A DNA stretch of 36,649 nucleotides from Jimgerdemannia flammicorona (lineage: Eukaryota), in assembly GCA_003990765.1 (NCBI GenBank), contig RBNJ01000210.1:1-36649 (forward strand), in the 5' to 3' direction. Every line of letters begins with the position of its first letter. Position 1 is the stretch's first letter. This document shows, in pieces, positions 5,882-35,800 of this stretch. Made by a program: the position numbers and the translations under genes. The notes under the pieces are model-generated. The model had not been told where the DNA came from. It worked only from the letters and a program-made list of their open reading frames with translations, and made no database searches.

Positions 5882-5883
5882 TT

Positions 5884-5901
5884 TGGAGGCTCAACTAGAA
5901 A
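5884..5901 (+). promoter_or_regulatory. Primer-binding site, probably tRNA-Pro (copy A)
   Basis: TGGAGGCTCAAC.. begins 2 nt after the LTR. The consensus with copy B, TGGGGGCTCAAC, resembles the complement of eukaryotic tRNA-Pro 3' ends (e.g. the TGGGGGCTC start of the MLV Pro PBS). Confidence 0.7.
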
Positions 5902-6433
5902 GATTTCAAAATTGACATAACTTTTCAACTTACAAAAACCCACAGTCAAACTGGATATATTTGATATAACACCAATCTCTGTCACTACAGGAGAACCAGT
6001 TATCACTAGCATTTAGACAGGAAGAGAAGTAATTACCTCAAGACTTGCCAACTACCCAGCATCAGAAGGATTCCAACCAGAAACCAGTACAGCCTGAAAC
6101 CCTCAACCAGACCAATCTGACAATATAGGCAGCCCTGTTGGAGATTTTGAAGAACTTGCACAAGAACTAAAAGATCTTATTATATAAGCCTGAAATCTTA
6201 CAGACAGATACCCCATACTAGTCTCATCAATCTCACCCATTGAACTCTTACCACCAGCTCTTGCAGAATTAGAAATAGCTCCTACAAGAATACCTAGGCT
6301 CATTCCACTTCATCCAAGGTCCAGAATACTATCCTCAAGATACCCAAGCACCCCCATCTCCAGTGACAGCTCAGAAAGAAAATCAGAATCAGAATCTGGA
6401 CCAGAACCAGAATCAGAAGAAAGTGACAATGAA

Positions 6434-12879: not shown

Positions 12880-13375
12880 CCAGTATCTTCAGACTCTTGT
12901 TCTGAGTTTATTTTAATCACTCCTGATTTCTCTTCCACAATTCTAACAAGCCAATAGAAACCCCCTTTAGCAAATCCAAACCCATCAAGAGAACCTCACT
13001 TTGGCCAAATGTTTACTATAAGTCCACTAGCTGCAGGCCTACTATGCAATTGGAGAACAGTTGCAGAACCTCCTAGCAGTAAACCTGACCTACATCAGAA
13101 ACTCCACTGGCCTCACCCAGAAAAATACCACTGCTATAGATAGATTATATATAATTTATAAATAAAATATCCCAGCATTGACACAAGTACAATTCTTACT
13201 GAATAATATTCAGAATATGAACCTTGCCACCTACTGGAGTATCATTAACCATGTTGAAATCCTGTTTCCAGAGGAGGAAGAAGAACCTGTTGAGTGGAGT
13301 AACTCTGATTCAAATGAAGATACCAGTTCAGGTATTGATGCTGAAGATGCCTATGTACATTAGAATGATGACTAA
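12863..13375 (+). pseudogene. Copy A extra 3' ORF (170 codons), unknown function, disrupted
   Basis: Same length and relative frame as 27973-28485. Start codon reads ATA (ATG in copy B). Shares YYAIGEQLQ, DRLY and VEILFP.EEEEP..WSN. Confidence 0.75.
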
Positions 13376-13403
13376 AGGAGTGTCTAAGGACAGACCATCC
13401 TTT

Positions 13404-13415
13404 AGTGGGGGCTGA
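13404..13415 (+). promoter_or_regulatory. Polypurine tract (copy A)
   Basis: AGTGGGGGCTGA immediately before the 3' LTR, identical in copy B. Confidence 0.75.
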
Positions 13416-14425
13416 TATGATGAGCAATAGAATTGCACTGCTAAAATCATAAATTAGCTACATACTATATCTAGAGCACTAAGTAACCAAGACTGCTTTA
13501 CTGTACCAACTTATATAATTAGCCAGAGATACCAGAAACAGTATGTTTACCTATACCCTCTAGGTACACCATACCCTCAAGATACACTGTACCCTCAAGG
13601 TACACTATATTCTCAAGGAATACTTGCCATAGTTAGCAATCTATAGTTAGCAATATAGTAACCAGATAGCAACCACAACTGTATAAAATACTCCAGAGAC
13701 AAGAGTGAATAAGCCTCAGTTCTGAAAGACAAAGCAAAAGACAAGTCTGTCTACTATATTTCAAGAGATATACCTACCAAAAGCCACTTGATCCAGAAAG
13801 GATTGCAATACTTAGGAGAAATATCTGCTCTATAGCTACTGCTAGGAGATTGTGAGCTTTGCCCCTTTCCCACTCCAGTCCACTTTCCAATACAAAGATT
13901 GATTAGTATACTTACCAGACTAAGCCTGAAGAACTCAAGTTTCTACTATCTAAGAGAAAGCCACCTTACTCAAACCAGTTTCTAATACAACTTTGCAGTA
14001 ATTCATCATGCAAATAAAACCAGTCTTTAATGTAACTTTGCCAAGAGACTCTTTCTCAGTTGAAGCTGCCATTTTCGAGTATATTCCCAGAGAACTCTAC
14101 CAATTCAGGAAGAATTCATGATACCTGAGTTATTGAATTATCTACCTTCTATAATATCCAAGTTATCCAAGTTATCCAAGTTATCTGCTGTCAAGTTGTT
14201 TGTCTATTATTCTCAGTTGACCCAAGAAGAAAACCCATTCACAAATTGCTGCTATACCCAGAGAACCCATCTCAATAAGGAAATTGCTTGCAGATATCCA
14301 GTTTGACTATTATATCACTAAACACCAAGAACATTTTGTTGCTTTTAACAAAGTAACTGGGGGGCTTAAGCCAAATATCAACCCCCAACCTTGTAATTTG
14401 CCTCCATTGAGCCAGGCATATTATA
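13416..14425 (+). repeat. 3' LTR of Gypsy copy A (~1010 bp)
   Basis: Starts after the PPT (TATGATG, probably a mutated TG start) and ends ..ggcatattata (cattaca in the 5' remnant). TATAAA at 13682. Shares sequence blocks with the copy B LTRs. Confidence 0.88.
13552..13623. repeat. Four 18-bp tandem units (consensus TGTACCCTCAAGGTACAC) in U3 of copy A
   Basis: tataccctctaggtacac / cataccctcaagatacac / tgtaccctcaaggtacac / tatattctcaaggaatac. Confidence 0.85.
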
Positions 14426-14429
14426 ATAT

Positions 14430-17330
14430 TTATTCAATAATTATACCTAATATGTTTCATTAAGTGAAAAAAGATATCTTAGAACACTTGGTCAATTTAA
14501 CTCTTAATCTTATCAAGAGTTTATTTAATATATATATGGTAAACCTGCTTATACTAGAGCTAGATCTCTATATTCAGCTTGTTTCTTGATATCTTGGCCT
14601 CAAAAAATTCTCTATTAGAATTTCAAATCTTAATTAAATATCTATAGACAAATATTAACAACTGATATATATGAGTATTATATATATTATAGTAAGTTTG
14701 TAAACTATTTGTAAACTCTTTAACTAAAAAAAAAAATTCTTTTATAAGATATTCCTGCTATATATGAGAGTGATTTTCAAATTACTTAGTATTGTCAAAT
14801 GTCCCACAATATTTATTGAGTGGTACTTCTATGTCTCATTACTAGTCCAGACTAAAAAAATACTTCTAGATCAAAATGTACTATTATTTCAATTCAATAA
14901 ACTAAAAGAGCAGTTTGCAAAGATCTCACTAAGTTTACTGAACTTTAAAAAACTCTACTCTCTACAGTATAGTTCTGAGTCAACTTAAACATTTAGTATA
15001 CCAGATAATACTAATATAAAAATAACTGAACATCAATATTATGTAGAAGTTAAGATACTATATTGATAAATGAATAAATATAATCCTCTTTTCTAAGTTA
15101 TCAAGTTTGTAGAGTACCAAATAGTACTTGAGGACAAGCTTTATCATATTATAATCAGTAAGTTTGTGGACACCTCAAGCTCACCAATAACTGAGAAATA
15201 CTCAAACAATATCATCTCCTGTCTTAGTATAATGTTGTCAGATTTCAGAGTAAGAATTGTATAAAAGGTATAGAACTAAGTATCTAAGTACTAGTATTCC
15301 TAAAGATGTACTTTATATCAATGAAGTTTCAAAATTATTTAGGCTATATGATCTTGAACTTATTATTTAGATATTTTTCTATAATCTCCAGTTTATATCT
15401 AGAAATAGATATTATCATTGAGTAAATAGGAAGAATCTTTCCAAACTTTCAAATTTAATAGTAAGTTATTTATACTAAGCCAGCTCATGAACTTTTTTGT
15501 GATATTTCTAATATCTCTCCTTAATCTCTATAGATTAATATCTTTATCACTTTATTAATTAGAGTTTATAATCTATTTACAGATATAAAATTAGATTCAG
15601 CTATATTTTATCAACTTATCTACTACAAGTGACAGTTCTACAAGAGTCTATGATATAACTGGATAGTGTTGTATTATTTTACAGATAAGTAGTTTGAGAT
15701 AAAATAAGATATAGATAATATCTTTTTGTCTAAGTTTGCCTTCTCTTCAAAATTTAGCAAAATCATCAAGTCTATTAACTTAAATACTTGAAGTGATACA
15801 ATATAGTAGATATTGAGAATTCTAGTACTAAAAATATAATCTTTTATAATTATGAGATAGAAATAGCTATCATTATATAGACTGAGTAGTTTAATATTAT
15901 ATTTGTAGATAAAATTATTCATGTAACTCTTGTTTAAGAAATATGATTCAGTAAGAAAGAACTTAGTGAGTAGATTGAATATATAATCTTTTAATTTATA
16001 TTTAGTAAATAAGTATACAGATCACATATCATAAAAGAAACTTTTTTAAATATATATTTTATTTATAAACACATAGTTAGACTAAATAACTAAGTATATA
16101 GATTGAAAATTTATATAATCAAACAAACTTGGCATACTTATAATTGTGATCAGTTTTTATTTGAGAAGTGTACAGTAACATTAGGAGTATGCATTCAATA
16201 GTAAATTAAATGTAATATAAGAGTTTATGCATTATTATTGAAACTAAATCTTTATTGACATAAGTTGAGATTTATATAGTTTTATATATAGTATTTATAG
16301 TATTTATTATTTATAGTATTCATAGTATAGTAGTATTTATAGTATAGTTTATAAATTCATTATAGATATATTTCATATAGTAAATATATCTCATCTTTTC
16401 ATATTTAAGTTAAATCTCATTTACTTACTCTTTATAGATAATAGATCTGGTTTAGCATTAGGTGAAAAGTTATATTATAAATCCAACATACTTCTTTGAC
16501 TATATTGTTTCTCTTTTGGTCTTCTTCTCTTCCAGTAAGATAAGATAGTACTTTTTTTGATCAGATGGATGATTATTATATTGTAATTTTTTACTGAATA
16601 GATGATTTTCCACAATAGTATCCTTAGAGATAGTATTGATAACACATTTATATAATTCAGAGTATGTTCTGGTTGAGTTCATTGACTTTGAGTTTTGTCC
16701 AGAAACTGCATCTTGAGCTCATCTAAGGACAGTACCAATTTGTTGAAGTATTTTATTGACTTTATTAGTCTATTTAGCTTTCTTTAGAAGTTATTATCAC
16801 TTTTAGTACTTGGCATTTTTTTGGTGCTAATAGTGGCTTTTTATTTCATCAAGATTCATTCTCTATCATTAGAGGACTCTTTATCACTAACTAGAGGTAG
16901 TGATGGTATTGTTTCTGTTTTGCTTATACAAAATAATTCTTCATTAGCTATAATTTATATTTCTTTCTATCTTATCTATACAGTAATAAATATCTAAATT
17001 TTATTGATAGTATTAAGAACATCATTTGAGAAATTGAAACAGTTGAGTCATAGATACATCCTCTATTTGTTTATCATTTTTCTTATTTAGATATAGTCAT
17101 ACTTATTAGTTCTAAACTAAGCCTCAAATTTCTGTATATTTCATAAACTAAATTGCTAAAAATACAGATAGAAAATTATAATATATAAACCATAATTTTA
17201 TAATATAAACTTGAATAACTATGGATATAAACTAGTAGATGCCAACAGATTTATTTTCTTGAGAATATAGTCATATGAACTAAATAGTAAGTATACAGAT
17301 AAAAATATATAGTATAATGATTAATCTAAA
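14430..17330. other. Very AT-rich, CpG-free decayed tract, possibly a relic of minus-strand coding sequence; (TATTTATAG)-like low complexity at ~16270-16380
   Basis: Base composition, plus some minus-strand stretches that translate into protein-like text if TGA is read as ancestral CGA. Confidence 0.4.
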
Positions 17331-17334
17331 TTAG

Positions 17335-19273
17335 GAAAATGAATCAGGGGAATTAGGTATCTGGATTCAGTAGCAAGAACTAAAAAAAGAGAAATAGCTG
17401 ATAAAGTTTTTATCAAGGCTTCTCCAAATAAAACAGATGAGATAGTAGTAGGATAGAGTATTGGATGAGAATGGAGAGCTAGTGGTAGAGACTCAGGATA
17501 TCTTAGATCAGTTGAGGAGTTACTGGGGGCTATTGTGGAGTAAGGAGGATATATGTAGACCATTGAGTGTATCTGGAGAACTAGCATCCAGATCTGGTAG
17601 AGAGTCTGAGTGAGCTTAGAGTACCAGTCCAAGAAGAGGAGATTTTTCAGGTCTTGGTTATAACTAGTCTCAGGATGGCCCCTGGAGATGATCTGCTCTG
17701 GAATTCTGGAAGAGAATAGCAGAAGAAGGAATAGTTCTAGAGGAGATATTATAGATATATAATAAAGTTATTAGCTTTGGAGCTTAGATTACAGAACTGT
17801 ATCTGAGACTGATGGCTTTATTATATAAGAATAAGGAGAGAAGAGAGGAGTGGAAGAACAGGAGATCAATCATACTTCTGGATATAGATTATAAGCTAGT
17901 TACAAAGATCTTGGTGACCAGATTGCAGGAGATGGGTCAGTGGATACTGGGGGAGAAATAAAGGAAATTTTTTGGGGTTGATTGATCAGAGATAGGACAG
18001 CATGGGTCTATAGTATCATTGAGGGGATAAGAGCTACTAGGGTAGATAGTTGTCTAGTATTTCTGGACCAGGAGAAGGCATATAATAAGATATAGTAAGT
18101 ATGGTTAGACAGAATACTAAAGTACATTGGGTTCTCTCTGGGCTTTCAACAGTTCTTGGTTTGTCTGCTGGAGAGGAGTTGAGTGGTTATATATTCTAAT
18201 TAATAGCCACAGAGGGGTTTCATTCTCCTTGGAGAGAGAGGTGCTATAGAGTAATCCACTATTACCTATTCTTTATACCCTCTCTTTGAAGCTATTTTTG
18301 GATAGAATTCAGTATAAGAAGAGGGGATTGGACATTTTTGATATAAATTGGAAGACAGAAGTCTTTGTGAATAATACAGTAGTCAGATTGGGCTCTGTAG
18401 AGAATATGGTAGAGCTAAAAGAGATAGTGAAATAGTATAAAGAGTACTCTGTGGCTAAGCTTAACTGATATAAATATGTGACTATAGTACTAAGAGGAGG
18501 AATAGTGAGAGGAGATCTGATAGAAATAGTTGTCTAAGCAGGAGAGGCAGTTCACTATTTGGAAATCTACTTCTTAGTATATAGCTCTCTGTTGTTTAGA
18601 GAGTAGTGAGAGTAGTAGCTGATAGAGTAGGAGAATGCACTCCTGGGCTGAGATGGTCAGCATATCTCTCTGACAGAGAAGGTAGTGATGTTGAATGTAT
18701 ATTGGTTATCTAAGCTATAGTATCTGAGTTATTATCTGGATTTTTCAGTATAGATAGTAAAGAGACTTCTGAAGATAGCTAGATCTTAGATTTGAGCTAG
18801 ATAATGAAGTCAGATTGGATGTAAAGTATTGATGTTACCAGTGGACCAGAGGGGCCTTAGTATTGTGGACTTTATTAAGTACTTCTACTTAAGAGTATAG
18901 TGGCTGAAGAGAGCTAGTGAGCTGAGGGATTGTAGTTGAGTCTCTCTTATACAGAGGGTGTGGGAGACATAGGTCTCCTTCAGGAGAGTAACTGGTAACT
19001 TGCTCTCTCTGGTGGTACTTGAAGAGAGCCATGGATATATTAAAGAAGCTTTTGATAGGGGTAGTTGATAGAGCCCATCATATTGGTATCTGCTGATAGG
19101 GTGATGAGAGTGAAGTAGACTAAACTCCAGATGTGGAGGTGGGACTATCTTCTGGTAGAGAGTGCTCTGGTGGATGATTTCAGCCTTGAATAGTATAGAG
19201 TATCTATAAGAACAAAGGAGAGTTCTATGGCCAAAGGTGGGAATTAGTAGAGAGTGAGACTGGGCTAATATAT
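17335..19273 (+). mobile_element. Old 5'-truncated LINE relic (ORF2 RT region), left part
   Basis: Colinear with ~33910-35732, e.g. tttctggaccaggagaaggc (FLDQEKA) at ~18060, gctaagcttaactgatataaatatg, gaatgtatattggttatctaagcta. Much more diverged than LINE copies 1 and 2. Confidence 0.88.
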
Positions 19274-19433
19274 TATAACAGACCCAAAACATACTATTTG
19301 AATTATAACTTAGCCAGATGATGCGAACAATTAGTATACTTACTCAGCATGATGTGACTTCTAGTGTATCATAGTTACTCATATCTGCTACACTTATAAT
19401 TAGCCAAGATACCAGATCAGGATTGTTTACCTG

Positions 19434-19525
19434 TGTCCTGAAGACACACTCATGTCCTGCGGACACACTCATGTCCTGTGGACACACTCATGTCCTGTAG
19501 ATATACTCATGTCCTGTGGACACAC
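19434..19525. repeat. 19-bp tandem repeat (TGTCCTGCGGACACACTCA), ~5 units, in U3
   Basis: Five tgtcctg starts at a 19-bp period, against four in the 3' LTR (28685-28757). Confidence 0.92.
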
Positions 19526-19609
19526 CTGTACTCAGAGGATACACCCAAACATTACCGAAAATAGCAAATCTATAGTTAGCCACATAGTAACCAGATAGCA
19601 ACCAACTTG

Positions 19610-19615
19610 TATAAA
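19610..19615 (+). promoter_or_regulatory. Putative LTR TATA box
   Basis: TATAAA at the homologous position in all three full LTRs (13682, 19610, 28842), downstream of the palindromic arrays. AATAAA follows at 19636. Confidence 0.55.
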
Positions 19616-20922
19616 TTACTCCAGAGACGAGAGTGAATAAAACCTCAGTCCGAAATTGAAGCAAAAGACATGTCTGCCTACCACACTTCGAGAGGAACTC
19701 TACAGCTACTGCTAGGAGATTGTGAGCTTATTTCCCCACTCTGGTCCACTTTCCAATACAAAGAATAAGTCTGAATTGAAGTGCAAACCAAAGAAGCCTC
19801 TAAAGATTGAGCATTGGTCCCCTTATTCCACTCCAGTCCACTTTCCAATACAAAGCTGAAGATTTGCTGCCAAGTTCAAGGAAGAACTTCACCACCTTTG
19901 AGAATTCTTGTTATTGGTTCGCTTGCCAGATAAGCCTGAAGATTTTCGCCTTTTCTGCTTTTTACACCACTTAAGAGAAAGCTGCCTTGCTCAAGTCAGT
20001 TTCTGATGTAACTTCACAGTGGAGCCAGTCTATGATGCAACCCCATGCAAATGAAGCCAGTCTTTGACATAACTTTGCTAAGAGACCCTTTCCAAGCCAC
20101 CCTCCCATTTCCCAGTTAGAAATCACCAATTCAGGAAGAATCCACATCACCTGCTGTTTTTGAGTTATCCACTATATTCCCAGTTGAAACCGATTCAGGA
20201 AGAGTCCGCACCATCCGAGTTAATTCCCAGTTAAGCTGCCATTTTCAAGAAGTCCGCCGATTCAGGAAGAATCTGCGTCATCTGCCATTCCCAAGTTATC
20301 TGCATTCCCAGTGAGCCCGAGAAGAATCTGCCACCAGCATTATTCCCAGTTACTCGAATTATCCGTGCCATCCGAGCTATTATTCCCAGAAGAAGAATCT
20401 ATGCCATATATTCCCAGTGAGCCAAATTGAGTTATCCGCTGGATTATTAGAATATCCTGCATAAGGAACCCACCACGCTACACAGAGATTGTCGTGCTAC
20501 ACAAGATCATCATACAGAAACCACATAAGGAGAACTGCTAAATTGCCAGATCATCACACAGAAATCACATAAGGAGAACTGCTAAATTGCCAGACCATCA
20601 CCCACAAGGAGATCATTGCGCTACACAGAAATCACCCATTACTCAAGAAGGAAACTGCTCATGCTACACACAAATTCTGCCATTCCCAGTTGACCCAGGA
20701 AGGAAACCCATTCACACAAATCACTGCTATATCCAGAGAACCGTCCCAATAAGGAAATCACTCGCAGATATCCAGCTTTGACTATTATACTGCTAAACAC
20801 CAAGGACCTCAGGAATCTTGGAACATTTTGTTGCTTTTTGACAAAGTAACTGGGGGCTCAAGCCAAACTACATCAACTCCCAAACCTTGTAATTTGCCTC
20901 CATTGAGCCGGCACATAACATT

Positions 20923-20940
20923 TGGGGCTCAACTGAGAAG
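20923..20940 (+). promoter_or_regulatory. Primer-binding site, probably tRNA-Pro (copy B)
   Basis: TGGGGCTCAACTGAGA begins 2 nt after the LTR end. Confidence 0.7.
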
Positions 20941-21147
20941 ATTTCAAAATCGACATGACTTTTCAGCTCATAAGAACCCACAGTCAAACTGGATATATTT
21001 GATACAACACCAACCTCTGCCACTATAGAAGAACCAGTCATCACTAGCATTTGGACAGAAAGAGAAGTAATTATCTCAAGACTTGCCAACTACCCAGCAT
21101 CAGAAGGATCCCAACCAGAAGCAGGAGGCAGTACAGCCCGAAATCCC

Positions 21148-21192
21148 CAACCAGATCAACCAGATCAACCAGATCAACCAGATCAACCAGAC
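21148..21192 (+). repeat. 9-bp tandem repeat (CAACCAGAT)x5, in frame with gag (QPD repeats)
   Basis: Read directly from the sequence; copy A has about 2 units at ~6104-6121. Confidence 0.9.
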
Positions 21193-21504
21193 AATGCAGG
21201 CAGCCCTACCAGAAATTTTGGAGAACTTGCACAAGAACTAGAAGACTTTATTACCCAGACCCAACACTTTACAGCCAGCCACCCCACACTAGTCCCACCA
21301 ATCTCACCAATAGAACCCCTACCACAACCTCTTGCAGAACCAGAAGTAGCTCCTACAAGGATACCTAGGCCTATTCTACCCCACCCAAGGACCAAAACAT
21401 CATCCTCAAGATACCCAAGCACCCCTGTCTCTAGTGACAGTTCAGAAAGTAAATCAGAATTAGAATCTGAACCTGAACGAGAATCAGAAGAAAGTGATGA
21501 CAAA

Positions 21505-22560
21505 ATGGCCACCTCATTGCCAACCTTTGTAGGATATCCGGAGGAGGACCCCAGAGAATTCCTTGATGGAATTGAAGGAATTGCAGCCTTGAGAAACCTC
21601 TCAGATGAAAGTAAAATCACCATCTACAAAGCCCAGCTTAGAGAACCAGCCAGAGGAATTTTTCACCAAACAGCAAACAACCCAGATTCAGAACTGGCAA
21701 GACAGATACAAGCAGCATTCTCTAATGAGTTAGAGTATGAGGCCATGGTCCATTGGCTCATTGAAAAGTATGCAGGAAATGAACCCTGCCATAAGGCTCA
21801 GGAATCCATTATGGGAATGAAGATGAATCTTGGAGAATCACCAAGAGCCTTCTTCACAAGAATTCAGAAGAGAATGCATTCTGCTGGATTCAATGCCACC
21901 AACCAAGACATCATAGGTCCAATGACCTTCATGAATGGAATTCCTCCAAATATTGCCCAGCATGTCCACACCCTAGGTATCAGAAGGTCTGAAGAGCAAG
22001 TAGATGTAGCCCAAGGATTCTTTGATGTCAGGCAAGGAACTACCTGGAGTGATCATGATAAGAAGGAAGAAAAGGAAGATATCCTGGTCAAAGCCCTGCA
22101 AGGACTCCTTCAAGGACAAGAAAGATCTGAAGAAAGAAGGCCAGCCAAGGAAGGAAAGAAGGACAGAAGTGAAATTCAAGACCTCAGCTCCAAGTTAGAC
22201 TGATTGGTTGGACAGATTGAAAAACTCACCATACATGAAAATCAGAGCTACCAAGACAACAGAGGATACCCACCACAGAGGAGCCAAGGTTATCTACCAA
22301 GAGATAACAGGAATTACCAGTAAGAAGAAAGAAGGTACCCTGTCTGAGACAGAGCCCAAGTCCAATGCTTCCACTGTAGATAATTCAGACACTATGCCAC
22401 TGAATGTGACAACAAAAGAAGTGACCGAAGGGACTCAGAACCACCAAACTGAAGGAATGACACCCAGTACAAGAAGACTGAAGTCCATCCTGTTGAAGAT
22501 TTCGAGGAAGCAAGCAACAGTGAAGACTACAGTGATCTAGACTTGTACCCTACCAAGGTT
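21505..22560 (+). pseudogene. gag: Copy B Gag: retrotransposon capsid and CX2CX4HX4C nucleocapsid knuckle
   Basis: LPTFVGYPEEDPREFL..GESPRAFFTRI..FMNGIP. In-frame CFHCR*FRHYATEC at 22366-22407. Confidence 0.9.
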
Positions 22561-23009
22561 ACCACCTGAAAGACAGTCTACCCAGCAGAAAAAAGAAAGT
22601 GACCTGTGGGAAGACCATCCAGGAACATCAGCAGAAGAATTATTCAAGAAGAAGATGAAGAACATGAGGAGGAACAAGTCGAAACACCTCCCCGAACCCC
22701 CTCACCTTTTGTGCCTGAGACAAATGAACTGCCACCAGAAGATGAAGAAATGGAACAAGAAGAACGGGAACCTGCTGCTTCAAAGCCTAAGAAGAAGTAC
22801 ACTCCAAAGACCATGCCTAGAGATATTTATAATGAAGCCTGGCAGAAGATTCAAGAAGCCAAGATGGAAGTCCCTCTCCTGCAGTTCTTGCAACTGATAC
22901 CAGCTGGAGTCCGAAACAAATTGCTGAGAACCACCAGGTCTAACACTGGCCAAGTTCCAATCCCACAGCAAGAACCAGCCTCCATCCCTGTCCAAGCAGC
23001 TGAAAGACA

Positions 23010-23390
23010 TGTCAGCACCTACTTACATGGAGACATTGGAGGACAAAAAGCAAAAATCCTTATAGATACAGGAGCAGCTGTCTGTGTCATTGCCAAACGA
23101 TTCTTGGACACCCTCCAATAGCCCATTGATGGACCATCCAACCTCAGCATCATAGTAGCAGATGGAGCCCGAACTCAACCCCTTGGAGAAGTATGAAATT
23201 CACTATTTCCCTTGGACATATTCAGTTCTCCATCCCTAAAGCTGTTGTCACTGAAGCTGTCACTTATGACATGATTCTTAGCACCAACTGGATGAAGGAA
23301 ATGAATGCAGTTGTTGATATTGGCCAACAAGTACTCAAGTTTGACTACCGAGGCAAGAAGTATAGGGTTAAGGTGACCAGCTATGAGCAA
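23010..23390 (+). pseudogene. Copy B aspartic protease
   Basis: KILIDTGAAVCVI (DTG at 23065-23073), IVADG, YDMILSTNW. One stop and a copy-specific 1-bp deletion near 23200. Confidence 0.92.
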
Positions 23391-24689
23391 TTAAAGAAAA
23401 AAAAGAAGGTCACTATTCAAGAAGAATATGCCAGCAGTGAGGAGTCTACTACAGAAGAGGAAGAAGAATCTGAAGATGGAAATGATACCAGACTCAATCC
23501 ACGAATTAATCTGGTGGATGACAGACCAGAAGACAATGTGTGGGCCAAGAACACTATCCCTATCACCATTGGAGCCATTGCAGGAGAAGCCAAAGGATAC
23601 CCTACATGCCTCAAGAGACACAAGTGTCCCGAGCACTCCTCCAAGATCATGGGAAAAAGGAAATTGCCTGGTGCAGTCTGCCCAGAATGCAGAAGAAAGA
23701 AGAAGAAATGCAGATATGTTCCAGAAACACCTGTGACCAAAGCTGCAGAAGTACAAGTAATTTGGGGTCAAGAATCATCTGAGGAAGAAAAAACTTCTGA
23801 CCAAGAAGTTTCTGAACAAGAAGTACCTGATGAAGAAGAAGTCCCCGAACTCATCCCCTGGGATGACCCTCGCTGGACACCACCTGAAGACAATGATCCC
23901 TGGAATACAGAGGAAGGACCCAGTACCATCACCACTATCTCCAAGAAAGAAACCCACCAAGAGAAAGCTTTCCGGCTAGGAAGATGTCCACATCAAATGG
24001 TCTTCCACTCTCCCCGAGACTACTGCTATCAGTGTTATCTGTTGGACCAACAAGAAAGACAGAGACCCCAGAGACCAGAACCCCCAACTACTCTTGCACA
24101 GTCCACCACCTTTCATGAGGTCACCACAAGGTTATAAAGTCGATTTAGGGGACAAGGCTTCTTCACCCGAACAGAAGTATACCCCTTGTCTACCCTTCCC
24201 CCAACCTATGATCCAGATGGGTACCGATTCCCAAGACAATAAGAGATAAATAGCCAGGAACATCATTTCCAAGCAATGGGATATTGTAACCATAGGAGAC
24301 ACCCTGATTTCTGAGATTGCAGACATCAGAAGATCCACCTCAGTCATGATGTTGCAGTGCACACCTTGAAGAAGAGAGATAACCGAAGCCAGATTCGAAA
24401 AAGTCAGATTCGAAAAAGCCAGACCAAGAAGCCTGGAAAAAGAATTCTCAAGATCTATGATTTGGGAGAAGACATCCTAGCCCTCATCAGACATGTAACC
24501 CATCAAGGATGGGTAGAAGATGCCACCAACTTCATGGAAGCCCTTGACCCTACAGGAAGGAGGGGAATCAATTATCTCCGAGACCCCTCTACTGGAGCCA
24601 GATGGCCACACCTCAACCTTAGAGCTTGGAGGCTTTCCGCTAGTAGAGCTTTAGCCTTAGGAAAGCCTGAACTCAGCAAGGACATTGCC

Positions 24690-25095
24690 CAGTATACCCT
24701 GCTGCACCCCAAGGCCAAACCCCCGACCAAAGCCCACCCAGAGGATGTAGGATATGATCTTCACAGCCTAGAGGACAAATCCATCAAGCCTGGAAAAACC
24801 TTCATGGTCAGAACTGGATTAGCCATACAGCCACCTCAAGGAGCTTATATTCAACTGACCTCAAGGTCCGGACTTGCCAGACAAGGAATAACTGTAGAAG
24901 GAGGAACCATTGACCCTGGATATATAGGCGAAATCAAGGTTATCCTACACAACAGCAGTGCAGAATAGCACTGAATCATTAGAGGACAGAAGACTGCCCA
25001 AGCAGTCTTCATGAAGGTCAAGACCCCACAGTTACAGGAAGTCTCCGAACTAACTGAAGGAACAAGACAAGCCAAGGGATTTGGAAGTTCAGATA
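24690..25095 (+). pseudogene. dut: Copy B trimeric-type dUTPase domain
   Basis: All five motifs are present: VGYDL, SRSG, GTIDPGYIGEI, K(T/I)AQ and RQAKGFGSS. Two internal stops. Confidence 0.95.
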
Positions 25096-25450
25096 GGAAA
25101 GAGGTACATCTCCTTCAAGTCAACCACCTTAAGAGGAATGTTCCCCAGCAAGTATACTGGCAACCAGTCAGACTATACAAGAATCTCATCCTGGAGCCTA
25201 GAGAACAAACCACCTTCGAAATATTTGCACCACCTGACCCCAGGAACCATTTCTTTGAACCCAAGGAAGATATCCCATACCTGGACATAGAGGGACACAC
25301 ATTCCCTGACAAGATGAACCCAGTACACTCCTGAGCAACCAACCAAAGTTGGGAGACCATCATCCTGCCAAAAGGAACCATCATAGGACATCTGGTGCCT
25401 TTTCTCAACTGAACTCATAGAGAGGTTTATGAATTAAACCTATCAGGAAA

Positions 25451-26917
25451 CAGCAAAAGGTCCCAGAAGAAAGGAAAGGCCCCTCTGCGACCCAGGAGAC
25501 AGTGAAGCCTTCCACCAACATTGGAGAAGAATTGATACCTCAACAACAGCAACAACTAGTAGAACTTCTCAACAAATATCAAGATATCTTCACCACTGAT
25601 TATGGCAACCTGCCATACAACCCATCATATCACCACAGCATAAATACAGGAAGTGCAACACCCATCCGGCAGAAACCCTATAGAATACCCCATTACTTGA
25701 AAATATTCAAAAAGGAGCATATCTAAGAACTCTTAGACAATGGAGTCATCCGACCCTCTATGAGCCCCTGGGCCAGCCCTATACTTATTGTACCAAAGAA
25801 AGGAGGATGGAGACTCTGCATGGATTACAGAAAACTCAACTCAGTCACTGAAAAGGATACTTATCCTTTGCCCAGAATCGATGACCTTTTGGACCAGTTA
25901 CAAGATGCCAGATACTTCAGCAGTATGGACCTCTTCACGGGATTCCATGAGATCCCCATGGACCCCAAGGACATTCAAAAGACAGCCTTCCTTGCTCTAG
26001 AAAAACTGTTTGAATATCTCTAAATGCCCTTTGGACTCTGCAATGCACCCCCAACCTTCCAGAGGATGATGAATTCAGTCTATGCCCCCTTGATCCACCA
26101 CTGTCTGATTGTATATATGGATGATTCCAACATCTATTCAGAAAATTTCGAAGAACACCTGCACCATCTAGAGGAATTCTTCAAGCTCACCCACAAGAAT
26201 CACTTGAGACTGAATGCAAAGAAATGCTACTTTGGAAAACAGCAACTCAAATTCCTTGGATTCATGGTCTCAAAAGAAGGAACTCATGCAGACCCAAAGA
26301 AAACTGAGAAGATCAACAATTGGCCAGTACCCAAGACTCCAAAGGAAACACTATCATTCTTGATGCTAGTATCCTACTACAGAAGGTTTATCAAAGACTT
26401 TGCCCAAATTGCTGCCCCAATCCAAATCCTTCTCAAGAAAGGAGTGTCATTCAAATGGACAGAATTACAGGAAAAAGCTTTCAGAGAACTTAAGAACTGC
26501 ATGACTATAGCACCAATCCTTGTGTGCCCCAATCTACAGAAGCCATTCATCTTGTATACAGATGCTTCTAAAGATGGCCTAGGAGCAGTTCTAGCCCAAG
26601 AAGGACCTGACCAACAGCACCATGTGATAGCTTATGCAAGAAGGGCCACCAACTAGCAGCAGATAAACTATGGTAGCACCAAACTGGAATGCCTTGCAGT
26701 CATATGAGTGGTCACCCTGTTCAAGCATTACCTCATCAGAAAAAGGTTCACCCTGATCACAGATCATGCAGCCCTCAAATGGCTATTCAACTACAAGGAA
26801 CCTACTGGAATTCTAGCCCACTGGATCCTCATCCTTCAGGATTACAAAATCACCATTATACACAAAGCAGGGAAAGCTCACAACAATGTTGATGTACTTT
26901 CCTGCCAGTCCCAATGA
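25451..26917 (+). pseudogene. pol: Copy B reverse transcriptase-RNase H
   Basis: [75 protein letters not shown]. Single frame with stops. Confidence 0.96.
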
Positions 26918-27989
26918 ACCAGAAGAAGGGTGTCCTGAGGAACTACACCCTAAAGGAAGCTCCTCAGACCACTAAGAAACAAGAGCATCTCATCTGACAA
27001 GAACATCAGAAAGCCCACCAAGGATAGACATGCATAGAAGACAAGATTTGAAAACAATATCAACATTGGCCCCACCTCAGAGCTCAAGTACAGGACATCA
27101 TTCAGAAATGTGATACCTGCCAGAAGTATCAAGGAAAGAAGAACTATCAAGCCCCTCTGCAACCGATTCCCCCACCCACTCACATCTTTCAAAAATCGGG
27201 AGTAGATGTAATTGGACCTCTACCAGTTACACCAAGAAGAAACAAATACATCCTTGTATTTGTGGAACATCTGACCAAGTGGCCCAAGGCTTTCCCAATG
27301 GAAATTGCAGATGCCTTAACCATTGTAGGCCTCCTCCATGGACTCACACTCAGATATGGACCTCCAGAAGAACTTATCTCTGACCAAGGCACAGAATTTG
27401 TCAACAACATAATCACAAGTTATGCCAGAATTCACAAGATCCACCTCAAAAGGACCACATCATACCACCCTCAGACTAATGACATGACAGAAAGAATGAA
27501 TCAGACCATCAAGAAAGGACTTGCCCAAGTCAATCCTACTAATTGAGACCTCTGCTTACCTGAAGTCCTATGGGAAATTCGGAATACCCCTGCCATGTCC
27601 ACCAAACAAAACCATTCGAAATGATGTTTGCTAAGAGAACCAGAACTGCTGACCATGAGAATCTCGGAGACCTCCTCAAGAAGGCAGAACAGTTACGAAA
27701 TCAAGCCCAAGGACAGATTATCAAAGCCCAGGAAAGACAAAAGAAGTACTATAACCAAAAACAGATGGATCAGGAGATCAAGATTGGAGATCAAGTCCTA
27801 GTTTGGAGAAGTATGATTGAGACAAACTTTGCTACCAAACTAGAACCAAAATGAGAAGGACCTTATCTTATACACAACATCAGAGGAACCAGCATCTATT
27901 TAAGAAGCATGGATGGACGAACCCTGAGAACACCAGTACACATCAATTGCCTCAAGATATACTTCTCACACCATGAACCAGAGAATTGA
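26914..27989 (+). pseudogene. Copy B integrase (HHCC, DDE core, GPY/F C-terminus; no chromodomain), separate ORF
   Basis: ATG at 26914 is in frame with HQKAH..W..CDTC, GVDVIGPLP, SDQGTEF and YHPQTN..ERMNQ. KLEPK(W)EGPY follows a copy-specific 1-bp deletion near 27610. Confidence 0.92.
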
Positions 27990-28485
27990 CAACCACCTCC
28001 AAACTCTTGTCCTCAGTTCCCTCCAAGCACTACCAGTTCCCCTATCTCAGTTCCAGGAACCCAATGGAACCTATCTTCAGAGAATCCGAGTTCATCAAGA
28101 GAACCTCACTTTGGCCAAGAGGCTACTCCAGGTCCACCAGCTATAGGTATATTATGCAATTGGAGAACAATTGCAGGATCTTCCTCTCCCAGACCTAGCC
28201 TATGTCTGAAACACCACTGGTCTGAACAGAAGGAATACTACTGCTGCAGACAGACTATACACAATATACAAACAAAATCCTTCTGCCTTAATCCAGGCCC
28301 AGTTTTCCCTGAATGACCTCCAAAGGATGACACTGCCCACCTACCTCAGCATCATTCACCAAGTGGAGATCCTATTCCCTAAGGAAGAAGAAGAACCCCT
28401 GAAATGGAGTAACCATAGCTCAGATGATGATGATGGAACAGGTATAGATGCAGAAGCTGCTTATGTCTATTGGGATGATGACTGA
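27973..28485 (+). pseudogene. Copy B extra 3' ORF (170 aa, acidic C-terminus), unknown function; two stops
   Basis: CACCATG start. Translation: MNQRIDNHLQTLVL..ENLTLAKRLLQVHQL*VYYAIGEQLQ..AADRLYTIYKQNP..SLNDLQRMTLPTYLSIIHQVEILFP..YWDDD. Conserved in copy A. Confidence 0.8.
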
Positions 28486-28512
28486 AGAATAGTCTGGAAC
28501 AGACTACCCTTC

Positions 28513-28524
28513 AGTGGGGGCTGA
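28513..28524 (+). promoter_or_regulatory. Polypurine tract (copy B)
   Basis: AGTGGGGGCTGA abuts the TGT of the 3' LTR. Confidence 0.78.
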
Positions 28525-30152
28525 TGTAACAGACCCAAAATGTACAACTTAAATTATAACTTAGCCAGATAATGCAAACAATTAGTATACTTACTCAGCA
28601 TGATGTAACTTCCAGTATATCATAGTTACTCATGCCTGCCACACTTATAATTAGCCAAGATACCAGATCAGGATTGTTTACCTGTGTCCTGAAGACACAC
28701 TTATGTCCTGCGGACACACTCATGTCCTGCAGACACACTCATGTCCTGTAGACACACCTGTACCCAGAGGATATATCCAAACATTACTGAAGATAGCAAA
28801 TCTATAGTTAGCCATATAGTAACCAGATAGCAACCAACTTGTATAAATTACCCCAGAGACGAGAGTGAATAAAACCTTAGTCTGAAATTGAAGCAAAAGA
28901 CAAGTCTGCCTACCACACTTTGAGAGAAACTCTACAGCTACTGCTAGGAGATTGTGAGCTTATTTCCCCACTCTGGTCCACTTTCCGATACAAAGAACGA
29001 GTCTGAATTGAAGTGCAAACTAAAGAAGCCTCTAAAGATTGAGCATTGGTCCCCTTATTCTACTCCAGTCCACTTTCTGATACAAAGCTGAAGATTTGCC
29101 GCCAAGTTCAAGGAAGAACTTTGTCACCTTTGAGAATTCTTGTTATTGGTTCACTTGTCAGATAAGCCTGAAGATTTCTGCCTTTTCCTCTTTTTACACT
29201 ACCTAAGAGAAAGCTGCCTTGCTCAAGCCAGTTTCTGACACAACTTCGCAGTGGAGTCAGTCTATGACACAACCCCACACAAATTAAGCCAGTCTTTGAT
29301 GTAACTTTACCAAGAGACCCTTTCTAAGCCGCCCTCCCGTTTCTCAGTTAGAACCCACTGATTCAGAAAGAATCCACATCACCTACCGTTTTTGAGTTAT
29401 CTACCATATTCCTAGTTGAAACTGATTCAGGAAGAGTCTATGCCATCTGAGTTAATTCCCAGTTAAGCTGCCATTTTCAAGAAGTCCACTGATTCAGGAA
29501 GAATCCACATCATCTGCCATTCCCAAGTTATCTGCATTCCCAGTGAGCCCAAGAAGAATCCTCCACCAGCATTATTCCTAGTTACTTGAATTATCCATGC
29601 TATCCGAGCTATTATTCCCAGACGAAGAATCCACACCATATATTCCCAGTGAGCCAAATCGAGTTATCAGCCAGATTATCAGAATGTCCTGCATAAGGAA
29701 CCCACCATGCTACACAGAGATCGTCATGCTACACGAGATCATCATGCAGAAACCGCATAAGGAGAACCACTAAATTGCCAGATCATCATGCAGAAATCGC
29801 ATAAGGAGAACTGCTAAATTGCCAGGCCATCATGCATAAGGAGATCATCATGCTATACAGAAATCACCCATTACTCAAGAAGGAAACTGCTTGTGCTACA
29901 TACAAATTCTGTCATTCCCAGTTAACCCAGGAAGGAAACTCATTTACACAAATCACTGCTATACCCAGAGAACCATCCCAATAAGGAAATTGCTTGCAGA
30001 TATCCAGCTTTGACTATTATACCACTAAACACCAAGGACCTCAGGAATCTTGGAACATTTTGTTGCTTTTTGACAAAGTAACTGGGGGCTCAAGCCAAAC
30101 TACATCAACCCCCAAACCTTGTAATTTGCCTCCATTGAGTCGGCATGTTACA
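28525..30152 (+). repeat. 3' LTR of copy B (1628 bp)
   Basis: TGTAACA...TGTTACA perfect 7-bp inverted termini; direct repeat of 19274-20920. Confidence 0.97.
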
Positions 30153-30680: not shown

Positions 30681-30764
30681 CAGCACCTCTCTCTGCTACA
30701 ATTCACATTACACACACTTTACAACACACTTTCAAATCGTTTATTGGAGAAAGATATTAAGGAG

Positions 30765-32799
30765 ATGTCAACCAGTAAGCGAGCTGATGCATATCCTAAG
30801 TCGGGTGGACCTGGGGCCTTCGACTGGCAGCATGTCAGGAGAGGGTATAGACTGGGGATGGGGTCTTTTGGTGGATCGAGTGGACTGGGCAGCTCAGGGG
30901 GTAGAGGAGGCACTGGTGGGGGGGCTGGAGGGTAGCAGGGAGGGAGCTTTGCAGATGCACTTAAGGCTGGGGGTTGGCTGAGGGGTGCCCACAGTGGACA
31001 GGCAGGAGGAAAGGGGAAGCAGAAGGTTGGCGATGCTGGGGGAGCTGGGCCTTCACTGGTGGGAGGTGGAGGGAGTGGAGTAGTGGCTGGGGGTAGTGGT
31101 GGGACTGCTGATGGTAGTGTGACGGTGAATCAGAAAAAAAAAAGAGATGTGACAGCTGATGGCCAGGGGGGGCAGGGGCTCCCGATGCGGAAGGGGGACC
31201 TGGCTGATGGTGTAATGGGACTGGTGGTGGCCCCATTGCTCAAGAAGTCAATCTCGGAGTTTGCGGCTACCTTGTGCTTCTGGGGCTTGGCAGTGATGGT
31301 GAGGATGGTTCTGGAGCTTATCTCAAGGCAGGTGGTGGGTGCGGCCTCGGTGAAGTTCTTGAAGGGCATGGAGGGGGTTGAGGTGAGCTTTGAGGAGGCA
31401 GGCCTACTGGATGAGGCCATGAAGACAGGAGTGGTGGTTGGGGAGGTGGTGGTCCCCATGGTAAGGTGCTTGAGGTGGGACCCCAGGGTGGTGCAGCTTC
31501 TAGTGAGGGGGGTGCCCACAGTGACTAAGGAGGAGACTAGGAGGAGGGTGGAGGAGGTGATGGTAGAGTATGGAGACGTGGTGGACATTGGATTTCAGTT
31601 GTGGGAGGGGACAACTATCAGGACAGGCAACATCGATGTCAGGATTTGGTTGGCAGGGAAGGAGGCCACAGAGAAGATGAGTGACTGTCCCTCGGTGCTG
31701 ATGTGGGGGGCCATCATCTGCAAGGTGTCAAGGGTGAAGGGGAGTGAAGAGGAGGAGGAGGACTTGTTGGAGGTGCTAGAGGAGTTGGGTGGTGCTGTGG
31801 AGAGGAGGGCGAAGGCCTGGAAACTGTATGAGGAATCGACATATCTGGAGGTTGTGGGCGGGAGGCGTATCCATATGGATAAGAAGCAGTGGGAGTGGGT
31901 CCAGGGATGCAAGAGGCAGAAGGAGCTGTTGGTGAGTATGACAGGTAGAGGGAAGAAGAAGTCGGGTGAAGCTGAGGAGTCTGGAGGTGCTGAGGCCAGT
32001 GTCTGAGCTGATAAAGGAGGAGAGGAGGTAGAAGCGAAGGAGGCAGAGGCTGGGAAGGGGCTGGACAAGGACCCATTTGCTGATGGTACCTTTGAAGTGT
32101 GGGAGCCAGAGTTGGATGCCACCCTCCCCCCCACTTATCAGGAGGGGCCCAGTGGGGAAGAGAGGGACGACAGAGGATACACAGATGCAGGGGGCCCAGC
32201 AGGTGCACTTTAGGGTCCCTGATGTGGCTCAAGAGGGTCAGGTGGTGGCAGTTGGTGAGGATGAGCTGGTGGATGTCCCTGAGGGGAAGTGGGATGAGGC
32301 TGCTAGTGTAGGAGCTGACACCATGATGTTGGATGCAGGGCGACTGGGGACTCCAGGAGGGAAGGAGGTGGGGAACTTGTTGTGGGTACACAAGGTGATG
32401 GATAACCTCGCAGCAGAAGCATTGGAGGAGGTAGACCTGTGGGTGATACCTGAGGAGCATTGGGTAAGGATCCTGCATGGAGATGGAATGGTGGAGGTAC
32501 TGAAGGTGGAGATTCTGGTGATTTTGCTAGAGGAGGAGGGATATGAGGTTGATGAGGTGAGGAAGGCAGAGCTGGGGGTGGTTGCCAGTGAGTGGGCAGA
32601 CTACTGTTGGGCAGAGCATCGGGGTCTGCAGCTCTGGCAGGAGGCCTGTCTGGAGTATCGCAAGGATTTTGAGGAGCATGAGGATGGGGCAATGGTAGAA
32701 CTTCTGAGAGAGTTGGAGGCACAGGAAGCTGGGGAGAGGGAACTGGCTGCTGAACTTAACTTGGACTTGGTGCAGGAGAGGCAGGATGCCGACTTATAG
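30765..32799 (+). pseudogene. LINE copy 2 ORF1 (~680 aa; Gly-rich N-terminus, SFADAL motif, RRM-like core, acidic helical C-terminus)
   Basis: Two stops (30933, 32004) and a +1 shift in the C-run near 32130. LLVRGVP..EYGDVVDI..IRTGNIDVRI. Confidence 0.87.
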
Positions 32800-32831
32800 A
32801 GGATGGACTCTGATATATATCATTATTCTTT

Positions 32832-35800
32832 ATGAACAGTACAACCAATATTTTTTCTTTGAATGTGAATGGGCTAAGGGGATCTGGGCGGCATCGGAAT
32901 ATTTTTACTTGGCTCAAGGGATTGGAGGCTGATCTCTTTTTATTGCAGGATATTCAATGTGAGGATGAGGATGATCAGGCAGAGTGGACTAGGGAGTGGG
33001 GGGGGGCTGCTGCTTGGTTTGGAAAGGTAGTGATTCTGGTGAGGAAGGGCAGAGGAGACTTGGGGGGAGTCAGGAGCTGGGGCGATTGCTTGGTCTGGGG
33101 AGATTGGCATCGGCCAGGGTGGGAATCGGTGAAAGTGGGCTCTTGCTACTACCCTGCAGCTAGGGGTAAGAGGATTGCATGGATTAGGGGATTGCTGGAG
33201 GAGGGTATTCTCTTGGAGGAAGGGGTCGATGTTCTCAGTGGGGACTTTAATATGGTTTAGGATCAGCATCTGGACAGAACTGATGGAGGGAGGAGTGCCA
33301 GGGGTAGAAGTGGAGGTCTGGATGCATGGGAGGAGGTGGAGATGTTGAGCTCCTTGGGGGATATGGGTAGAATGAGGTGGGGTGACACCAGGGTTTACAC
33401 ACATTGGGTGAATGGCCTGGGCACAAGGATTGACTGGATTCTGATGGTGGAGTGCTGGGGTTTGGATGTTTGGAAGGCATTGGAAGTAGAGTGGTGCCCA
33501 TGGTCTGATCACTGGAGACTGTTGGGGCAGAGGCAGTTTGGGGGGAGTGGAGATGGACCCAGACATTGGTGCCTTAACTCCTCCCTGCTGGCTGAGAAGG
33601 GGCTGTGGGAACTGTGGGTGGAGGACATTCAGGCAAAAGTTTTTACCTAGAAGCATGAGGGTTTGCCTGTGGCTGTCCGCTGGATGAGGTTGAAAGAGGC
33701 TGCAAGGGTTTATTGGGGAGAGGCTGGTAGAGAGGCTGGGAGGCAGAGAAGGAGGTACACAAGGTGTGCTTCCAGCAGGCTGAGGAGACTACAAATAGAT
33801 TGGGCAGATTTTCTCACTGTTGAGGGGGTGGAGGACTGGAGGATAGAGAGGGCAAAATTGGAGATAGTGGAACTACGACAGATGCTGAGGGAAGAGGAGG
33901 AGACCCATATGCAGGGCATGGCTGCTAGGCTGCAGTGGCAGGGGCTTGAGGAGGGTGAGCAGCCTACTAGGTACTTATCGAGACTTCTCAAAGCTAGGAG
34001 AGTGCATCATCGGTGGGATGGGGTCCTGGATGCTGATGGGGACATGGTTCATGGCACGCAACAAATCCTGGGGGTCTTGAAGGAGAGATGGCAGGGTTTG
34101 TGAAGTGAGGGAGAAGGGGGTGCAGATGAGGCAGAGATTGTGAATACACTAGATGAGTGGGGGCCACCACAGGTTGCTGGACTGAGGGACTTGATCTTAC
34201 CAGTGCAGGGGGAGGAGATCCAGAGTGTCCTGGCAGCAACTAAGCTTGGGACAGCACCAGGGGAGGATGGATTGTCTTGGGACTTCTGGAAGAAGATGGT
34301 AAATATCCCTGGAGTGTTGGGCAAGATGACTGATCTTTGTGACCATGTCCTTCAGAGTGGTGAGTGGGTTGGAGAGCAGGATCTGAGGCTGGTGGCCTTA
34401 CTATACAAAGACAAGGGAAGGAGGGAAGACTGGAAGAACTGGAGGCTGATCATGCTTCTGGATATGGACAGGAAGATGGTGACTAGAGTGATTGTCACAA
34501 GGCTGCAGAAGGTTGCCCAACAGGTGCTGGGGGAAGGGCAGTGGGGCTTTGTTGGGGGCAGACTAATAAGAGATGGGACTGCATGGGTTCATGGTGTCAT
34601 TGAAGGGGCCCGGGCCTATGGACTGAATGGAAGGTTGGTCTTTCTGGACCAGGAGAAGGCCTATGACCATGTATGGCGGGTGTGGCTGGGAAAAGTGTTG
34701 GACTGAATTGGTGTTCCCCCAACATTTAGGGCCTCTATGTTGAGTCTGCTGGAAAGTAGTCAGGCAGCTCTGACGTATAATGGTCACCATGGGAGGGCAT
34801 TTTCCTTGGGAAGAGGAGTACCTCAGGGGGACCCTCTATCCCTGATTCTCTATGCCCTGTCACTGGAGACATTGATGGATAGGATTCACTAGAAGGTAGC
34901 AGGACTCTCTATATATGGTATAGTGTGGAAGGTGGGGGCCTTTGCTGATGATATGGTGGTTAGACTTGGGTCTGTGGCAGATGTAGAGACACTTCAGAAG
35001 ACTGTGGAATGGTATGAGGCTCACTTGGGGGCGAAACTCAACTGGTATAAGTGTGAGACAATGGTGCTAGGGAATGGGCTAGTGAGTGGGGATGTCATTG
35101 GAACAATTGTCCCTACTGATGAGATGGTGCAGTATCTGGGCATCTTCCTCTCTGTATATAGTTCTGTCTTGCCATGAGTGTGGTGGGAGAGCAGGGTGAA
35201 TAGTTGGGGGGAGGTCCTTCGAGGATGGGGAGGCTGCCATATCTCTCTAGCAGAGTGGGTGTTGATCCTGAATGTATATTGGTTCTCAAAGCTATGGTAT
35301 GAGGCATATCACCTCGACTTCCCAGCATGGGTGGTGGAGAAGCTGATGAAGGTGGCTAGGGATTGGATTTGGGTGGGGAGGAGGACCCAGGTCAGTTGGG
35401 ATACTCTTGCGAGACCGGTAGTCAGGAGAGGTCTTGGTCTGGTGGATTTCTCTAAGAGACTGTACTGCTTGAGAGCCTGGTGGTTGAAGAGAGCTGTGGA
35501 ATTGCAGGGTGGAGGTTGGATGCCTCTGCTGCAGAAGGTATGGGAGATGTGAACATCCCCCCGAGGGTCCTCTGGAGATCTGCTCTCTTTGGTGGGGCTG
35601 AATGGAGTTCAGAGGCTGCGGTTCAAGGGCTTATGGTAGGGAGTAGAGTGTCAGTGGGGGCTTGGCCAGGACCTTTGGCCAAGTAGCTGACAGGCAGTTG
35701 GAATTGGAGAGGAGTAGGACTGGGCAGGTATCTGGTCTTGGAGTGCTGAGGTACAGAGGTGGCTTCCTCCAAAGTTCTGGGTGGTATGGTGGTAAATGTT

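Follow-up and report, generated by a model that had tools for sequence, protein, structure and literature searches.

The stretch analysed here, a window of 36,649 nucleotides (nt) from Jimgerdemannia flammicorona (contig RBNJ01000210.1, forward strand), contains two copies, A and B, of a Ty3/gypsy-type long terminal repeat (LTR) retrotransposon in which the frame changes just before the reverse transcriptase (RT). This junction is very likely a fossil site of programmed -1 ribosomal frameshifting in the family. The coding region of the family is divided into ORF1 (gag-PR-X-dUTPase-Y), ORF2 (RT-RNaseH) and ORF3 (IN), where ORF is open reading frame, PR is protease, IN is integrase, X is the region between protease and dUTPase, and Y is a domain following dUTPase. 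A -1 frameshift between the PR/dUTPase ORF and RT had been put forward as a candidate in a first-pass annotation of the window; it is now supported by a near-intact relative, L081, and by the ORF1 ends of five related proteins.

The layout of the junction was confirmed in both copies. The reading frame of RT is -1 relative to the upstream ORF (RT frame mod3=2 in copy B, where ORF1 is mod3=0, and mod3=1 in copy A), and this ORF ends at TGA 25503-25505 in copy B and TGA 10415-10417 in copy A (Table 1). About 135 codons (25095-25502, Y) separate dUTPase from the frame junction. The overlap of the two frames contains TCA GGA AAC AGC in copy B and TCA GGA AAT GGC (10355-10366) in copy A, followed after a 7-nt spacer by the stem GGTCCCAGA/TCTGCGACC, with 8 pairs round a central C.C mismatch. 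The segment described earlier as identical in both copies and carrying a surviving CpG proved to be a 48-nt run (25465-25512), the longest in the 8.1-kb A/B alignment, although not an outlier, the next longest runs being 44, 37 and 37 nt.

No indel separates A and B from 24405 to 26293, and a second frame change, before IN and without a slippery site, is common to both copies. Both observations would fit a shared defect, namely an indel that the two copies received from a master copy that was dead or non-autonomous. This explanation has become highly improbable through L081, a single 4101-nt locus obtained by scanning metagenome contigs with an alignment of Y (CpG observed/expected ratio 0.36). 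Its DNA is 79% identical to copy B, with no indel between 24405 and 27611, and it has copy B's frame layout and ORF1 stop position. Its ORFs are at 3-851 plus 852-1382 (frame 3, dUTPase-Y), 1310-2794 (frame 2, RT-RNaseH) and 2770-3855 (frame 1, IN), the latter two being free of stops over 494 and 361 codons, respectively. Since both -1 frame changes are kept in L081 with stop-free ORFs, they are features of functional or recently functional elements rather than products of decay. In addition, the divergence of 16.4% between A and B exceeds the 9.8% between the LTRs of copy B, indicating that A and B are separate insertions.

The frame layout was also compared with DNA contigs from four public runs (labelled as soil metagenomes; shares 0.05-0.24), from which 888 pieces of at least 80% likeness over 25200-27000 were collected. 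Indels were tabulated at four places only (25242, 25250, 25846 and 25941), none of them at either junction, and pieces among those listed span 25366-25593 and 25201-25719 without a gap. This pattern agrees with the frame layout being family-wide. Among viral contigs, neither the scan with the Y-domain alignment nor the searches with an IN protein query and a 19-nt pattern gave a match, and the full alignment returned 80 loci, all of them phage dUTPases. A pattern match in a genome contig (L082) was rejected as a chance 19-mer match, the contig being GC-rich and bacterial with no other similarity.

At the protein level, a dUTPase-Y query against 1.84 billion representative proteins revealed three clusters only that cover Y. 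P0001 (226 amino acids (aa), 79% identical) ends at the window's ORF1 stop position. P0002 (1179 aa, 38% identical), a single ORF comprising zinc knuckle, protease, dUTPase and Y according to Pfam, ends 22 residues past the window's stop, and P0003 (312 aa) ends 21 residues past it, identities of these two ranging from 33 to 38%. Two further proteins, P0271 (404 aa, 19 member sequences) and P0272 (226 aa), came from word-index searches with the Y alignment and end at the window's stop position; the same searches gave P0273, a fragment that ends inside Y and is uninformative on the junction. Five of the database proteins extend to the end of ORF1 (P0001, P0271, P0272, P0002 and P0003), and none of them continues into RT. 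The ending of P0271 at the window's stop, and of P0002 and P0003 21-22 residues on at what was taken as the same place, likewise argues against a shared defect of A and B.

In L081, ORF1 and ORF2 overlap at 1310-1382, and the first AUG of ORF2 is codon 165, within the RT domain. With no AUG before that codon, RT must be made as a fusion to ORF1. Copies A and B and L081 thus all have a downstream ORF that is in the -1 frame, overlaps the upstream ORF and has no start codon of its own. These findings bear on the possibility that RT-RNaseH is produced unfused, by reinitiation after the ORF1 stop, by internal entry or from a spliced or subgenomic RNA. Reinitiation may occur somewhere in the family, given that an ATGA stop-start overlap is present at the RNase H/IN junction. 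For RT, the late AUG and the conservation of the -1 frame 5' of the ORF1 stop make unfused synthesis improbable; moreover, retroelement RT usually enters particles through its fusion to Gag, a route that would be closed to unfused RT.

Turning to the site of the shift, the sequence of L081 at the homologue of 25443-25454 is CAG GGA AAC GGC in ORF1 phase, which gives the canonical slippery heptamer G GGA AAC (at 1322). Only two in-phase heptamers of the type X XXY YYZ (Y = A/T) occur in the 1317 ORF codons of L081, GGGAAAC being one of them, and the chance of finding one within the 24-codon overlap is ~0.02-0.04. The first-pass annotation had deduced an ancestral G GGA AAC by undoing CpG decay. 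The G at the position of 25445 and its phase were borne out by L081, but the codon was not, L081 having CAG in place of the supposed TCG. A CpG supposed at 25451/25452 fits all three sequences (CA in B, TG in A, CG in L081). In L081, the youngest copy obtained, neither of the two outcomes named beforehand as speaking against the frameshift, an A at 25445 together with no frameshift activity or RT in frame with the upstream ORF, was found.

The peptide encoded at the heptamer is S-G-N in the window and P0001, Q-G-N in L081 and P0271, L-G-N in P0272, L-G-K in P0002 and I-K-K in P0003. Hence, the G-N dipeptide is kept among the family proteins while the residue before it varies, with the distant relatives P0002 and P0003 differing. 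Such a pattern would be expected from constraint on the nucleotide rather than the protein sequence. G_GGA_AAC is among the heptamers most prone to shifting on mammalian ribosomes (PMC5009743), and GGGAAAC is the heptamer of PEG10, PNMA3, PNMA5 and Rtl3 (PMC11299033, PMC2800197). Natural frameshift sites with a non-matching first base exist as well (PMC5009743). With the A at 25445, pairing after slippage would presumably still be possible at two of the three P-site positions, so that partial activity may have been retained.

A shift elsewhere in the overlap or of another kind was also considered, for instance at A TTA AAC (25433-25439), which L081 has too, or by single-tRNA slippage without a pseudoknot. 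If the first base is left free, three near-heptamers are in phase in copy B (ATTAAAC at 25433, AGGAAAC at 25445 and AGGAAAG at 25472), with counterparts in L081, and some viruses use non-canonical X_XX sites (PMC5009743). ATTAAAC, however, is 19 nt away from stem 1 and has decayed in copy A, whereas GGGAAAC is the sole canonical heptamer of the L081 overlap and has the structure candidate at the usual distance of 7 nt. A shift at another place or by another mode is therefore unlikely.

To evaluate the 3' structure, the region was scanned for H-type pseudoknots with a crude score (stacking energies only; stem 1 constrained to begin 5-9 nt past the site). In A, B and L081 alike, the highest-scoring candidate has the stem of the first-pass annotation as its stem 1, closed by a stem 2 formed by 25476-80, extendable to 25473-80, with 25507-11(13); loops are ~5-8, 3 and 14 nt. 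The originally noted stem is better read as stem 1 of a predicted pseudoknot. Dinucleotide-shuffled sequences scored as well or better in 5/300 cases for B, 14/300 for A and 2/300 for L081, mononucleotide shuffles in 0/500, and native start positions along L081 in 36/4026 (0.9%).

Conservation is concentrated at the same place, the 60-80 nt 3' of the heptamer being the best-conserved part of the alignment. In the three-way alignment of A, B and L081 (4.1 kb), the six best 60-nt segments all start at 25449-25474, with 54-55 of 60 positions identical (mean 40.3, standard deviation 8.9), and outrank the RT core. Across the 62 positions between 25452 and 25513, L081 and B show 4 differences where a divergence of 21% is expected (binomial 0.0016), and A and B show 3 (binomial 0.0057). 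Of the changes in the stem region, two are in stems, each a C-to-T change opposite G, and the other three are in loops or at the mismatch. A search of Rfam gave only a sub-threshold match to a snoRNA on the other strand.

Several observations weigh against a frameshift signal of this kind. Concerning the heptamer, those of the window are non-canonical, with A as the first base in both copies and AAT at the end in copy A. The G in L081, the sole DNA relative, belongs to a CAG codon, as opposed to TCA in the window, and for the window's own S-G-N subfamily it is possible that a G was once present at 25445 and was lost as a decayed CpG. Concerning the structure, the pseudoknot score omits loop penalties, and nested folding is unremarkable (z +0.51 for B, -0.08 for A, -0.20 for L081). 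Stem 1 appears in the minimum free energy and centroid structures of L081 only and not in those of B or A, its central mismatch is present in all three sequences (C.C, C.C and A.C), and these nearly identical sequences show no covariation. Double coding alone could be the source of the conservation at the junction. The dUTPase-Y frame of L081 carries one stop, inside dUTPase (849-851), at a residue that is open in the sister protein P0271. Finally, four of the 120 listed relatives of the L081 RT-RNaseH bear a dUTPase (P0196, P0236, P0253 and P0268, metagenome proteins from ENA with 44-47% RT identity) and have gag-PR-X-dUTPase-RT-RNaseH in one ORF without Y. As dUTPase and RT share one frame in these Y-less relatives, the shift is confined to the Y-bearing subclade. 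All four lack IN, their sequences stopping 13-23 residues past RNase H; the placing of IN in an ORF of its own extends more widely than the dUTPase/RT shift.

For active members of the family, a programmed -1 frameshift would operate as follows. Most ribosomes would terminate ORF1 17 codons past the heptamer, while a minority would slip back by one base on G GGA AAC during a pause caused by the structure that starts 7 nt downstream, i.e., stem 1, probably closed into an H-type pseudoknot by stem 2. The slipped ribosomes would read on into RT-RNaseH, so that protease and dUTPase would be made at the level of Gag and RT at a lower level. Slippage at this site, the pseudoknot and the efficiency of the shift are what we infer from the sequences compared. 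Stop-codon readthrough was rejected for both junctions, because the downstream domains are in another frame.

The element copies were found by self-comparison of the 36.6-kb window, and domains were assigned with Pfam on three frames of copy B, with stops read as X. Copy B has a pair of LTRs (90.2% alike over 1638 nt) and the Pfam order gag (zinc knuckle), aspartic protease (match from 23029, 5' of dUTPase), X, dUTPase, Y, RVT_1, RT_RNaseH, Integrase_H2C2 and rve. With the LTR pair and gag-asp_proteas, RVT_1, RT_RNaseH, RT_RNaseH_2, Integrase_H2C2 and rve in this order, the element is a Ty3/gypsy-type (Metaviridae) LTR retrotransposon. Copies A and B are 83.6% identical across the 8.1-kb alignment, with 1062 transitions versus 243 transversions. 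In copy A, tblastn with P0002 placed gag to Y in a single frame (mod3=2). Both window copies are dead, with many stops, indels and degenerate heptamers: in copy B, ORF1 is interrupted by 9 + 7 stops, RT-RNaseH by 4 and the initial 239 codons of IN by 4, and ORF1 of copy A contains 38. Two 1-nt gaps are private to copy B, at ~23200 (versus A; the protease frame is shifted) and at ~27612 (versus A and L081; the IN frame is shifted).

Table 1. Features of the LTR-retrotransposon copies and of the frame junctions (window coordinates unless marked L081).
Feature	Position	Strand	Remarks
Copy A, same LTR-element family as copy B	5783-14429	+	nearly all of 5' LTR lost; direct repeat of copy B
Copy A signal	10357-10425	+	A GGA AAT 10357-63; stem 1 10371-79/10396-404; stem 2 10385-92/10419-25; stop 10415-17
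Copy B of LTR element	19276-30145	+	5' LTR 19276-20913, internal 20914-28526, 3' LTR 28527-30145; self-comparison
ORF1 remnant, copy B (gag-PR-X-dUTPase-Y)	20974-25505	+	frame mod3=1 to ~23199, then mod3=0 after B-private 1-nt gap
dUTPase domain, copy B	24714-25091	+	Pfam PF00692, E 1.1e-25
Y domain	25095-25430 (core ~25161-25400); L081 969-1379	+	apparent degenerate second dUTPase-fold domain (AF2/Foldseek)
Overlap of 0 frame (ORF1) and -1 frame (RT)	25433-25502	+	-1 frame open from just 3' of TGA 25430-32
Slippery-site remnant A GGA AAC, copy B	25445-25451	+	G GGA AAC at homologous place in L081
Spacer, 7 nt	25452-25458	+	
Stem 1	25459-67 / 25484-92	+	8 pairs and central mismatch; pair table for A, B and L081
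Candidate stem 2	25473-80 / 25507-13	+	one bulged A; would form H-type pseudoknot with stem 1
ORF1 stop	25503-25505	+	TGA; TAA at same codon in L081
RT-RNaseH ORF remnant, copy B	25433-26917	+	frame mod3=2, 4 stops; Pfam RVT_1, RT_RNaseH
Second junction (-1), copy B	26893-26967 (region 26867-26967)	+	ATGA 26914-26917, upstream hairpin, pseudoknot candidate 26927-26967

The Y domain gave no Pfam match. An AlphaFold2 (AF2) model of Y of L081 reached a predicted local distance difference test score (pLDDT) of 68.6, with residues 1-18 and 106-129 below 50, and the top Foldseek matches of this model in the PDB are dUTPases, namely that of feline immunodeficiency virus (1f7o, E 2.6e-4, TM ~0.5) as well as those of equine infectious anaemia virus, human and Epstein-Barr virus. 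Judged from the model, Y resembles a second domain of dUTPase fold, in tandem with the first and devoid of recognisable catalytic motifs in its sequence. The X region (copy B 23900-24330, mod3=0; P0002 residues ~645-790) has two Cys/His-rich motifs between protease and dUTPase, the first of the form C-x-H...C-x2-C and the second starting with G-Y-C and followed by C-x2-C...H. Both, possibly zinc-binding modules, occur in the window as well as in L081/P0271 and P0002.

The window is strongly depleted in CpG throughout (observed/expected 0.09 overall, 0.00-0.17 by region), with an excess of TG, CA and AG; in the AT-rich spacer at 14430-19275 the ratio is 0.00 and the GC content 30%. The two LTR-element copies are flanked by two inverted copies, 77% alike, of a non-LTR retrotransposon (817-5776, - strand; 30684-35644, + strand) with Pfam matches to the endonuclease Exo_endo_phos (E 1.3e-9) and to RVT_1 (E 1.2e-23).

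The other -1 frame change, at the RNase H/IN boundary, is located at 11768-11868 in copy A and 2744-2840 in L081, with no A/B indel there. A slippery heptamer is absent from the RNase H/IN overlap, which is only 22 nt long. Instead, A, B and L081 share the conserved CCCAATGAA, where the stop TGA of RT-RNaseH overlaps an ATG of the IN frame. A hairpin of ~10 bp ends 8 nt upstream, and 9 nt past the RT-RNaseH stop begins the pseudoknot candidate that scored highest among the 4026 L081 positions; its stem 1 (26927-33/26945-51 in B) is kept in all three sequences and its stem 2 only partly. The IN frame might be reached by termination-reinitiation, by a P-site slip at the stop or by a short hop. 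To our knowledge, neither termination-reinitiation nor a structure-driven slip or hop at a stop codon is known for the integrase of an LTR retroelement. Precedents for termination-reinitiation are viruses with AUGA/UAAUG and SART1 (PMC10275272). It is possible, if somewhat doubtful, that Pol would be expressed via two mechanistically different recoding events, a G GGA AAC/pseudoknot shift after the tandem dUTPase/pseudo-dUTPase module and then a non-slippery event at ATGA for IN. The IN junction is the more surprising lead and, if it is a real non-slippery recoding site, would be the more interesting object.

A frameshift at the ORF1/RT junction would explain how the family balances its structural and protease/dUTPase products against reverse transcriptase. 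For annotation, it implies that the out-of-frame RT and IN of this family are not, for that alone, pseudogenes.

The closest counterparts of the proposed signal are PEG10, PNMA3, PNMA5 and Rtl3, mammalian genes derived from Metaviridae and thus of Ty3/gypsy-type origin like the window's family, in which the same GGGAAAC is followed by a structure a few nt downstream (PMC11299033, PMC2800197). A heptamer in common with these domesticated genes bears on the age of the signal in Metaviridae. A dUTPase has been reported in a metavirus that served as proxy for the PNMA ancestor (PMC11011659). The positions differ, however. According to the descriptions of PEG10 and Rtl3, these shift at gag/PR, after capsid/nucleocapsid, whereas in the window gag, PR, dUTPase and Y are upstream of the site and RT follows directly. 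The protease shares the ORF of gag and precedes the site, as seen from the single ORF of P0002 and the single frame of copy A, rather than following it as in PEG10. For PNMA3 and PNMA5, the descriptions give no functional domain found after the shift, unlike in the window's family, and the window's gag has no PNMA domain of Pfam.

Fungal gypsy elements (PosPlaTy3-5 and others) have dUTPase between PR and RT, as here; where PMC2864245 describes PosPlaTy3-5, dUTPase is placed within Pol, and neither a frameshift nor a second dUTPase-fold domain is mentioned. A dUTPase/RT shift in a gypsy-type element was not found described in a literature search that had Repbase, subscription journals and much of the older literature outside its scope. 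The four Y-less metagenome proteins share gag-PR-X-dUTPase-RT-RNaseH with the window but read dUTPase and RT in one frame.

In the gag-pro/pol and pro/pol shifts of alpha-, beta- and deltaretroviruses, the protease is encoded 5' of the shift and RT directly 3' of it, a PR/RT position like that of the window's family. In betaretroviruses, dUTPase is upstream of the shift as well, in the pro frame (PMC2238898). The differences from retroviruses are that the window's RT is of Ty3/gypsy type (Pfam RT_RNaseH/RT_RNaseH_2; order PR-RT-RH-IN, RH being RNase H), that the order is PR-dUTPase and not dUTPase-PR, that there is no separate gag/pro shift, and that IN is in a further frame. A Ty3/gypsy case would thereby be added to a PR/RT frameshift layout otherwise associated with retroviruses. 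We conclude that the signal is most probably a further example of the GGGAAAC-plus-pseudoknot type, placed between PR and RT as in some retroviruses, and represents ordinary retroelement biology in an unusual place.

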